From the NCBI GenBank assembly GCA_045630455.1, contig JAZQTD010000048.1, forward strand, positions 67,828-131,180: DNA of 63,353 nt. Reading direction: 5' to 3'. This stretch comes from Candidatus Enterousia sp. Its GTDB lineage: Bacteria > Pseudomonadota > Alphaproteobacteria > Rs-D84. A program made the position numbers and the translations under genes. Below are positions 5,391-7,871 of this stretch, piece after piece; position 1 is the first letter of the stretch; the number at the start of each line of letters is the position of its first letter. Below the pieces are notes generated by a model, which saw nothing but the letters and a program-made list of their open reading frames with translations, made no database searches and was not told the DNA's origin.

Positions 5391-5420
5391 AAAAAAAGGC
5401 CGGCATTTGCCGGCCTTTTT
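5391..5420 (-). terminator. Intrinsic terminator after parB containing the CCGG palindrome (copy 2)
   Basis: AAAAAAAGGCCGGCATTTGCCGGCCTTTTT. Confidence 0.75.
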
Positions 5421-6297
5421 ATGATATTTTTTCTATTAATTCGTTTAATTGTATTCGCGATGCAAAAGATATAACAATTTGTCCCGCGCCACCCCGTTTT
5501 TCAAGGATTTTAACCGGCGCACCAATCGATTTTTCGATTTGTTTTTCCATATCACGTACAATTTTTGGGTCAATTGTTCGTGATATTTTTTCCCGGTATT
5601 TGCCGGTCTTTTTGGCATTGTTTACCATACGTTGTGTGTCGGCAACAGACATTTTTTTGCCGATGATTTTATATGCTATTTCTTCTGGGTTTTTAGCAAC
5701 TGCAATTGTACGTGCGTGCGATGCAGATATTTGCCCCTGCTCTACCATTTCTTTGACGCTGTCGGGCAATGCGGTTATTCGCATACAGTTGCGAATATAA
5801 CTTTCAGATTTGCCGATTAAACGCACGACATCGCTGATTTCATAACCGCATTCTGTCATCAGATTTTGATATGCGTTTGCTTCTTCGATTGGATTCAGGT
5901 TTTCGCGCTGAACATTTTCAATCAGCGCGATTTCCATCGCATTTTCATTGCTTAATGTTTTTACCAGTGCTGGAATCTCGTTCAGGCCTGCTAATTTGCT
6001 TGCGCGGTATCTTCGTTCGCCTGCGACGATTTCATACATATATGGACGACCTGTAACGGTGCGTAATAATATTGGCTGTAATACGCCTTTTTCACGAATG
6101 GACGCCGCCAAATCGTTTAATTCATCTTCGTTAAATACTTTGCGTGGCTGGTCTGGGTTTGCGCCAATTTGTGCCAGTGGTATTTGTTTAACAACAACGC
6201 GTTCTGCGCCGGTTAATACAGATATGTCTGGTATTGCACCCTTGGCCATTTGCAGGTCGGCCAATCCACGACCCAGTCCAAATTTATTCGATGACAT
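5419..6297 (-). CDS. parB: Chromosome partitioning protein ParB
   Basis: GLGRGL N-terminus, NPDQPRK, GVLQPI, AGERRYRA, ENVQRENLNPIEEA, HTH. Confidence 0.96.
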   Translation of the reverse strand: MSSNKFGLGRGLADLQMAKGAIPDISVLTGAERVVVKQIPLAQIGANPDQPRKVFNEDELNDLAASIREKGVLQPILLRTVTGRPYMYEIVAGERRYRASKLAGLNEIPALVKTLSNENAMEIALIENVQRENLNPIEEANAYQNLMTECGYEISDVVRLIGKSESYIRNCMRITALPDSVKEMVEQGQISASHARTIAVAKNPEEIAYKIIGKKMSVADTQRMVNNAKKTGKYREKISRTIDPKIVRDMEKQIEKSIGAPVKILEKRGGAGQIVISFASRIQLNELIEKIS

Positions 6298-7069
6298 TTT
6301 CGATTCCTTCGGTTTTTTGAATTACTTCGGTTGCAACACGCAGATATGCCTGGGCGCCAGGTGATTTGAAATCATAGAATAAGGCAGGTTTGCCGTGGCT
6401 TGGTGCTTCTGATACACGGACATTGCGTGGTACAACTGTTTTGAACACAGTTTCGCCAAATGCGTTACGTACATCGTCTTCGACTGCGCGTGTCAAACCA
6501 TATTGCTTAGCGTACATTGTTAATAGCACACCTAAGATTTCTAAATTTGGATTCCATTTTTGACGTACGGCGGCGATTGTGTCTGTTAATTGGGTCAGAC
6601 CCTCCAAAGCGTAAAATTCGCATTGTAGGGGGATTATAACCGCATTGGAAGCGGTTAGTGCGTTAACGGTCAAATACCCTAGTGCTGGTGGACAATCAAT
6701 AAGAATATAATCATAGTGTTCTGCGATTGTATTTAGTGCGTCGCGCAGGCGAAATTCTGGATTTTCCATCCCTAGTAAATCTATTTCCAATCCTGCCAAA
6801 GCCTGAGAAGAGGGTAGTAAATGCAACCCCGGCACAGCGGTTGATAAAATGTTATCTGCGATGTTTGCAGTGCCCATAATAACGCCATATGCACTTTGCC
6901 GGTGATCGGCGCGCACAAAACCTAGTCCTGTGCCGGCATTACCCTGAGGGTCTAGATCAATTAACAAAACCCGACGTTTAATTGCCGCTAGTGATGCGCC
7001 GATATTAATGGCTGTTGTTGTTTTGCCAACACCGCCCTTTTGATTCGCAAATGCGATAATTTGTGTCAT
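6284..7069 (-). CDS. parA: Chromosome partitioning ATPase ParA/Soj
   Basis: NQKGGVGKTT, DLDPQGN, IDCPPALG, PRNVRVSEAPSHG. Confidence 0.97.
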   Translation of the reverse strand: MTQIIAFANQKGGVGKTTTAINIGASLAAIKRRVLLIDLDPQGNAGTGLGFVRADHRQSAYGVIMGTANIADNILSTAVPGLHLLPSSQALAGLEIDLLGMENPEFRLRDALNTIAEHYDYILIDCPPALGYLTVNALTASNAVIIPLQCEFYALEGLTQLTDTIAAVRQKWNPNLEILGVLLTMYAKQYGLTRAVEDDVRNAFGETVFKTVVPRNVRVSEAPSHGKPALFYDFKSPGAQAYLRVATEVIQKTEGIENVIE

Positions 7070-7107: not shown

Positions 7108-7136
7108 AGTTTATAAAAATCTGCCGATTCAGTCAA
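7108..7136 (-). promoter_or_regulatory. Sigma70-type promoter for parAB
   Basis: TTGACT-17 nt-TAAACT on the minus strand. Confidence 0.5.
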
Positions 7137-7185: not shown

Positions 7186-7201
7186 GATTTCATGTGAAAT
7201 T
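7186..7201. promoter_or_regulatory. Canonical-like parS candidate 1
   Basis: GATTTCATGTGAAATT versus consensus TGTTTCACGTGAAACA (11 of 12 core bases match); upstream of parA. Confidence 0.4.
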
Positions 7202-7234: not shown

Positions 7235-7257
7235 AAAAAAAGCCGGTAAATGCCGGC
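7235..7257 (-). terminator. Terminator after rsmG containing the CCGG palindrome (copy 4)
   Basis: GCCGGTAAATGCCGGC with a U-tract on the minus strand. Confidence 0.6.
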
Positions 7258-7295: not shown

Positions 7296-7313
7296 TAATT
7301 TCATATGAAATTA
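7296..7313. promoter_or_regulatory. Perfect 18-bp palindrome, canonical-like parS candidate 2
   Basis: TAATTTCATATGAAATTA. Confidence 0.4.
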
Positions 7314-7871
7314 CCGGTCAAAACGCACGGAAATGATAAAGCCGTCGCCTGTTTTTGATGGTGTAAGTTCATAATTAAATTTGTATTTACGTTTTGCTTC
7401 GTTGATTTCGGTTTCGATTTCCCGGCCTTTTAATAAAAAAAGCCGGTATTTTGTATGTGCAACATAGTCCATGATCTTGGTTAGTGATGCAAAAGCGCGT
7501 GCGGTGAATACAAAATCATGCGAATTTGCCGGTAAATGCCGGACAAAATCTTCCAATCTGCCGTGGTAAATTTCCAGGTTTTTTAGCCCCAGTTCTTCTT
7601 TGACAGCGCGCAAGAAAGAAACTTTTTTTCCAATCGATTCTACACATGTTACGTGCCAACCCAAAATGGCCAGTACAACGGCTGGAAATCCGGCTCCGCT
7701 GCCCATATCGATTATTTTAATGTCTGTCGGCAAAATATCCGCCAGTTGCGCAGAATCGGCAATATGGCGCGTTTGTATGTCGTTTAGCGTGCTGGGTGCG
7801 ACAAGATTCATACGTGTCGACCATTCACGCAGTAGTTTTTCGTATTGTTCAAATTTGACTTTATTGTTCAT
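7311..7871 (-). CDS. rsmG: 16S rRNA m7G527 methyltransferase RsmG (GidB)
   Basis: MNLV..RHIADS, DMGSGAGFPAV, TARAF; classic position upstream of parAB. Confidence 0.95.
   Translation of the reverse strand: MNNKVKFEQYEKLLREWSTRMNLVAPSTLNDIQTRHIADSAQLADILPTDIKIIDMGSGAGFPAVVLAILGWHVTCVESIGKKVSFLRAVKEELGLKNLEIYHGRLEDFVRHLPANSHDFVFTARAFASLTKIMDYVAHTKYRLFLLKGREIETEINEAKRKYKFNYELTPSKTGDGFIISVRFDR

Follow-up and report, generated by a model that had tools for sequence, protein, structure and literature searches.

ParB and its centromere site parS are counted among the most conserved protein-DNA pairs of bacteria. In the stretch of DNA analysed here (the window, 63,353 nucleotides from an alphaproteobacterium, Candidatus Enterousia sp.), the chromosomal ParB lacks an arginine that normally reads guanine 1 of the parS half-site. 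This raises two questions: has the DNA specificity of this ParB changed, and which sites does it recognise? An earlier note, made from the letters of the window, had answered that the specificity had switched, and had pointed to a GC-rich CCGG palindrome as the new partner.

The protein itself belongs to the chromosomal ParB/Spo0J type. The parB gene (window 5419-6297, minus strand) encodes 292 amino acids with the domains ParB_N (PF02195, E 3.4e-34), HTH_ParB (PF17762, 1.7e-25) and ParB_C (PF23552, 3e-08), and the closest solved structure in a phmmer search is Caulobacter ParB (6t1f, E 2.9e-50). The CTP-binding GERR box of the N-terminal domain (residues 93-96, 6010-6021, minus strand) aligns to the Caulobacter GERR and is intact, as the earlier note had read it; the ENxQR motif and the C-terminal dimerisation domain are intact as well. 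With this CTP-clamp machinery in place, the protein is expected to load and slide, and ParA to drive segregation, in the manner of other ParABS systems. Open reading frames and Pfam domains place parA (261 amino acids, 6284-7069, minus strand) overlapping parB, with rsmG, also called gidB (7311-7871, minus strand), upstream of parA. RsmG is the usual upstream neighbour of chromosomal parAB, and the same gene order was found in all 30 relatives' loci that have parA.

ParB was present in 91 of the 91 family genomes searched, which are reduced genomes of about 1 Mb. No second HTH-bearing ParB was found in the assembly, which has only two further ParB_N matches, both of nuclease or methylase type: a 441-amino-acid ParB-nuclease/methyltransferase fusion (G000:C41:44621-45946; L006 463-1788, minus strand) and a 160-amino-acid protein beside a methylase-like gene (G000:C18:192-674; L007), both in phage-like context and neither a parS binder. 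A second ParB serving canonical parS was ruled out on the ground that these two proteins lie in phage-like context and lack the ParB HTH.

The minus strand at 5707-5814 translates to GKSESYIRNCMRITALPDSVKEMVEQGQISASHART, so that the strings on which the earlier note had relied, the recognition helix GKSESYIRNCMRI (residues 162-174, 5776-5814, minus strand) and SASHART (5707-5727, minus strand), are real. A gap-free HMMER alignment to the Caulobacter ParB chain 6t1f_A pairs IGKSESYIRNCMRITALP with IGKSRSHVANTMRLLALP and SASHAR with TAGHAR. Published Caulobacter numbering, used below, equals the chain index plus 10 and the residue of this ParB plus 8, an offset set by the GERR arginine, which is R104 in the paper and R94 in the chain. 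Relative to Caulobacter, R173 is replaced by E165 (codon 5803-5805), A177 by R169 (codon 5791-5793), T179 by C171 and G201 by S193 (codon 5719-5721), all on the minus strand; A184 is unchanged as A176. The manual alignment in the earlier note, with R173E, T179C, G201S and a new helix arginine, was thus correct, and a further change absent from its list is Q162 to I154. K171, S172, N178 and R204 are retained.

The published work on these positions gives the substitutions very different weights. In the account of Jalal et al. 2020 (PMC7383237), the recognition helix, alpha-4, enters the major groove, where R173 hydrogen-bonds guanine 1 of the parS half-site, and a ParB in which Q, K, K and R stand in for R173, T179, A184 and G201 acquires the specificity of Noc; the four specificity positions listed in the earlier note agree with that study. 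The study found R173 indispensable for parS binding, and its deep mutational scan had R173 invariable among parS-specific variants and tolerated C, S or T at 201, everything except P, D and E at 179, and anything at 184. R173E is consequently the sole one of the three listed substitutions expected to matter, since T179C and G201S fall within the range that the scan found compatible with parS. Additional lysine or arginine at 179 and 184 was described as "permissive", acting through phosphate contacts, and position 177 was left unvaried in the accessible text of the study. From an alignment of about 1,800 extant ParB orthologs, the same paper describes R173 and G201 as "absolutely conserved"; here these positions hold E and S, and the protein is still filed as ParB because residues 173 and 201 are a specificity signature and not a fold criterion. 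A literature search combining ParB, parS and R173 returned on this topic only the Jalal study, its preprint and one re-analysis, and a search for "non-canonical parS" together with ParB and parS found no publication.

The loss of R173 is rare and family-wide. Position 173 is non-arginine in all 35 family members examined, and position 177 is R or K in the same 35. Within the genus (n=25 loci), position 173 is E in 13, V in four, A in four, D in three and T in one, position 177 is R in 23 and K in two, and position 201 is S throughout; the 10 genomes from seven other genera of the family have E (six), V (two) or I (two) at 173 and R (eight) or K (two) at 177. Among 15 outgroup ParBs from other families of the order, R173 is kept in 13, and all 15 have A, S, T or G at 177, with no R or K. 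All 13 R173-keeping outgroups have S or T at 201, from which it follows that the change at 201 is older than the loss of R173 and occurs alongside canonical parS; neither G201S nor T179C is informative about specificity. We also drew a sample of the best 150 cluster representatives at 50% identity from 1.84 billion proteins. R173 is present in 143 of these best 150, and the seven exceptions are the six closest relatives, which belong to this family, and one protein with K; R or K at 177 occurs in only five, all of them among those closest relatives, while position 201 is G in 133 and S in 11. Judged from these alignments, non-arginine at 173 combined with arginine or lysine at 177 is a derived signature of this family that is very rare elsewhere. 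The counts within the family overstate the evidence, as relatives are not independent.

Two other lineages of the order, the remaining outgroups, appear from their sequences to have lost R173 independently. One (G029; L062, L067-L071) has Q173, as Noc does, and A1-type sites among its five core matches; the other (G025; L063) has L173, and core matches are absent from its genome.

The canonical parS (TGTTNCACGTGNAACA) that a chromosomal ParB would lead one to expect near the origin or parAB was not found: none lies in the window within three mismatches, and perfect copies occur on no contig of the assembly except a phage-like one considered below. A palindrome survey of the relatives' parAB loci, made without a prior motif, returned recurrent palindromes of 14-16 bp with the form nATTTCAYRTGAAATn. 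In the window there are two: a proximal site, AATTTCACATGAAATC on the parA strand, at 7186-7201, 132 bp before the parA start, and a distal site, AATTTCATATGAAATT, at 7297-7312, which overlaps the rsmG stop codon. A site was found 104-135 bp before the parA start in 24 of the 25 genus loci, the 25th having no upstream DNA, and a second site 210-347 bp upstream of parA in 15. The 12-nucleotide core TTTCAYRTGAAA has only one to four copies per genus genome; the reversed control had none in 23 of 24. In the sister family f3, which keeps R173, all six loci examined have a parS-type site with G1 in both half-sites at -170 to -204 before parA; five of the six have the full canonical sequence, and the sixth (L035) differs by a CA centre. 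Three genomes of another genus of the family (g14), with V or I at 173, yielded no site with this core in the syntenic place, and one-mismatch genome scans of the core in the deep genera of the family gave mostly noise, with controls at 2-16 matches per genome.

A position weight matrix (PWM) was built from 36 sites of relatives, with the own genome left out, and used to scan that genome. The distal and proximal sites upstream of parA are the best chromosomal matches (scores 23.6 and 19.6) and the sole ones above 18, the next scoring 17.6. At a score of at least 16 the genome has 12 matches, against 0-2 in five shuffles, and nine of the 12 lie on the phage-like contig. These results suggest that the two AT-rich parS variants upstream of parA are likely the cognate centromere sites of this ParB. 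Canonical parS itself scores 22.4 on the matrix (maximum 25.8), close to the values of the genome's own sites, so that a change of preference stays a proposal. One further palindrome, TATTTTCATGAAAATA, found in 11 relatives' loci, was rejected as a ParB site: in one locus (L024) it spans the ribosome-binding site and ATG of a downstream gene, and its half-site spacing also differs.

On the parA strand the order of elements is the rsmG stop codon with the distal site, the rsmG terminator hairpin, the proximal site, a TTGAC-type promoter-like box and parA. The box, TTGACT-17-TAAACT (7108-7136, minus strand), was identified by consensus match, and its TTGAC block is kept in the upstream regions of relatives. 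The strongly kept block cTTGACcGAATCg occupies the same place, 7108-7136 on the minus strand, and recurs there in L009-L032. Lying downstream of the proximal site by about 60 bp, it probably represents the -35 region of the promoter of parA, in which case ParB loading would fall just upstream of the promoter of its own operon.

How the sites differ from canonical parS was counted over 80 half-sites from the genus. Positions 2-6 were set by the search core (at most one mismatch), and only positions 0, 1 and 7 are informative. Position 0, canonically T, is T in 49, A in 25, C in four and G in two; position 1, canonically G, is A in 60, G in 18, and C and T in one each, both from a single doubtful one-mismatch match at -29 in L018; position 7, canonically C, is T in 54 and C in 26. 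The centre dinucleotide is TA in 16 sites, CA in 12, TG in 10 and CG in two. The restriction of position 1 to purines and of position 7 to pyrimidines argues that these bases are still read, by a relaxed code, and speaks against site decay. Drift to A or T at weakly selected positions is also expected from AT mutation pressure alone. The deepest genera of the family, with E or I at 173 and K177, have the near-canonical sites AGTTTCACGTGAAACT and TATTTCACGTGAAACC, which suggests that the change in the protein preceded the drift of the sites. Within the genus no pattern of covariation between residue and site is visible, in a comparison of little power; L027, for instance, combines E173 and K177 with a single G1/G1 site.

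The reading that we favour, with reasonable but far from full confidence, is that recognition by this ParB was rewired and became more relaxed, without a switch to a new motif, and that its cognate sites are the parS variants in the spacer between rsmG and parA. In the sole chromosomal ParB, the helix has lost R173, normally the reader of guanine 1, leaving position 173 free to vary; an arginine or lysine one helical turn later, at 177, became fixed across the family and may replace the lost contact. The protein would bind one or two sites in the spacer with the consensus W-R-TTTCA-Y|R-TGAAA-Y-W, accepting A (preferred) or G at position 1 and T or C at position 7 and keeping the canonical inner TTTCA core. 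In the most likely history, which we infer from the distribution of residues and sites, the protein change came first, at the base of the family, and relaxed the reading of positions 1 and 7, after which the sites would have drifted towards A and T in AT-rich genomes. The claim that DNA specificity has switched is too strong in this light: the substitution of R173 is rare, family-wide and co-occurs with parS-like sites in which A1 is the majority, but G1 persists in 18 of the 80 half-sites and the deepest genera have near-canonical sites.

It is unlikely, though it deserves serious weight, that there has been no real change of specificity: ParB would still prefer canonical parS, the sites upstream of parA would be copies eroded in a reduced genome drifting towards AT, and R/K177 would add non-specific affinity only. 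Canonical-like sites do persist in the family (L055, L056, L048), the G1 half-sites just mentioned fit as well, as does the high score of canonical parS on the family-site matrix, the permissive effect of lysine and arginine in the published work acts through phosphate contacts (PMC7383237), and the genomes are rich in AT, with 41-45% GC in the window. Set against this, the published scan, as far as its text is accessible, has no parS-specific variant that lacks R173; position 173 varies freely among E, D, V, A, T and I, as expected if the base is no longer read; and the A1 majority (60 of 80) has been kept over more than 20 species with no decay to pyrimidines.

A phage-like contig of the assembly (C7 of G000, locus L038, 1-13081) bears on the same question. 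It measures 13,081 bp, has a GC content of 0.389 against about 0.42 for the genome, and holds all eight perfect canonical parS copies (TGTTTCACGTG[A/G]AACA) and one copy with one mismatch, spread along its length. It encodes a PolB of the protein-primed type (phrog_1907, E 1.2e-44), a terminase and an upper collar connector, and neither ParA nor ParB; the PolB is 25-27% identical to those of 11-12-kb podophages, and no near DNA match to the contig was found in the phage collection. The assembly has five PolB contigs, and such contigs occur in 6 of 151 genus genomes; the others have no parS cluster. The four further ones in this assembly (C34, C47, C40 and C36, 6-13 kb) carry PolBs 30-35% identical to that of C7 and have no parS sites, and similar sets of PolB contigs are also present in G119 and G155. 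Bacteriophage phi29 carries five host parS sites that are used with the host Spo0J for spore entrapment (PMC2731898). As a parS-bearing phage with PolB, terminase and collar genes, C7 is like phi29, and looks like a case of the same strategy of borrowing the host's ParB (Spo0J in phi29). Should this host really be the one that the phage infects, its ParB would be predicted to bind canonical parS, which counts against rewiring. The parS sites on C7 have the G1 and CG centre of canonical parS, in contrast to the parS-like sites of the chromosome, and the contig may be mis-binned in this assembly. We treat it as neutral evidence, because its sites suit a canonical ParB better than the chromosome's own sites do; its use as evidence that this ParB binds canonical parS was set aside, the contig being a phage contig and the other PolB contigs lacking parS.

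A complete switch is less probable again. Under it, ParB would prefer the A1/T7 variant and would not load on canonical parS, an orthogonal centromere code like that produced by the change from ParB to Noc. R173 is lost, an acidic residue stands at 173 in 16 of the 25 genus loci, Q173 of Noc reads adenine 1 (PMC7383237), the sister lineage with Q173 has A1-type sites, and the perfect canonical TGTTTCACGTGAAACA is on no chromosome of the 25 genus genomes among the matches listed. G1 half-sites and CG centres nevertheless occur in the family beside E173 ParBs, and the family has not settled at 173 on a residue that could read adenine. A bolder proposal, which we hold tentatively and regard as possible, is that a family of gut bacteria with genomes of about 1 Mb evolved an orthogonal centromere code in which the base-reading arginine moved from 173 to 177, W-A-TTTCA-T|A-TGAAA-T-W is preferred over canonical parS, and canonical ParBs do not load at these sites. 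If true, the family would offer a counterpart in nature to the ParB-to-Noc switch, one that involves ParB alone and was achieved by way of a position unexplored by mutational scans.

It is very improbable that the AT-rich palindromes are operators of another regulator of parA or rsmG and that ParB has lost sequence-specific centromere binding altogether. Two conserved DNA-contact residues (Q162 and R173) are indeed lost and the sites adjoin a promoter-like element. The sites, however, share 12-14 of their 16 positions with canonical parS and stand where sister lineages have canonical parS; N178, R204, K171, S172 and all CTPase motifs are kept, and both ParA and ParB are retained in genomes reduced to 1 Mb.

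The least credible reading is the partner first proposed, in which the altered helix recognises GC-rich CCGG palindromes near parAB: two such inverted repeats do flank the operon, and the genus has them in 24 of 25 loci, but both are a stem-loop and T-run placed just after the parB and rsmG stop codons, with loop-separated arms, a sequence that varies between species while pairing is kept, and no resemblance to parS architecture. The repeat GGCCGGC-N4-GCCGGCC (5393-5420, minus strand) overlaps the parB stop codon, and terminator scan and RNA folding identify it as the parAB operon's terminator. Its folding energy is -20.7 kcal/mol (z -5.5), matched by 0 of 200 shuffles, and seven U follow the stem. 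The hairpin GCCGGC-N4-ACCGGC with its T-run (7242-7257, minus strand), from the same terminator scan, is the rsmG terminator and lies between the two parS-like sites. Both palindromes thus have the GC-rich stem-loop, the U-run and the position after a stop codon of an intrinsic terminator, and in the relatives hairpins stand in the same places with different arm and loop letters. The own genome has 17 CCGG hairpins scattered over it, against 1-2 in shuffles, and five of them are within the window. The earlier note had expected the motif to covary with the helix and had itself named relatives with the same helix and no motif as evidence against its proposal; CCGG..CCGG hairpins with a T/A run, so frequent in the genus, are present in 1 of the 10 loci with the shared helix from other genera, and 1 of 13 outgroups with R173 has them. 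CCGG palindromes are the usual intrinsic terminator style of this genus, without covariation with the helix. As a style, [AG]CCGG[CT]-loop-[AG]CCGG[CT] with a T-run is common in the genus and rare in its sister genera.

If recognition has been rewired and relaxed as we propose, the clade, with more than 90 sampled genomes (non-arginine at 173 in 35 of the 35 examined), parAB kept and matching changes in the sites, amounts to a natural experiment. The family would show that an essential recognition code is able to shift even with no duplicate gene as a buffer, and would mark position 177 as an unexplored route for change of ParB specificity. Were the preference truly distinct, the pair could serve as a further orthogonal ParB/parS label for DNA imaging; were ParB still to prefer canonical parS, the result would nonetheless limit the claim that R173 is required.

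Noc, which is not known outside Firmicutes, has a membrane-targeting helix. The Bacillus protein (7nfu, 7ol9, 6y93), to which this ParB aligns at E 1e-36, resembles it in being derived from ParB, in having lost R173 and in using a site with adenine 1 (PMC7383237). The likeness ends at the specificity residues: Noc has Q173, K179, K184 and R201 and reads cytosine 6 (PMC7383237), whereas this ParB has E, C, A and S at the four positions, and its presumed sites have adenine at position 6 (in 79 of 80 half-sites, where the search core required A). Dispersed Noc-binding sites also contrast with the two strong sites of this genome, both at parA, and Noc coexists with a canonical ParB while here there is a sole ParB. 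The engineered PtoN variants of Jalal et al. 2020 are like this protein in that single residues of the recognition helix alter or loosen the preference at positions 1 and 6 of parS and basic additions are permissive (PMC7383237); they differ in that 177 was unvaried, and the accessible text of that paper reports no natural ParB lacking R173. With Caulobacter ParB (6t1f/6s6h) and Thermus Spo0J (1vz0) the protein shares the three-domain architecture, the GERR CTP box and the gene order rsmG-parA-parB, and with canonical systems generally a 16-bp palindromic site with a TTTCA/TGAAA core upstream of parA. It departs from canonical ParB in R173 to E, Q162 to I and the arginine gained at 177, and its sites depart from canonical parS in parallel, with A and not G at position 1 and T or C and not C alone at position 7.
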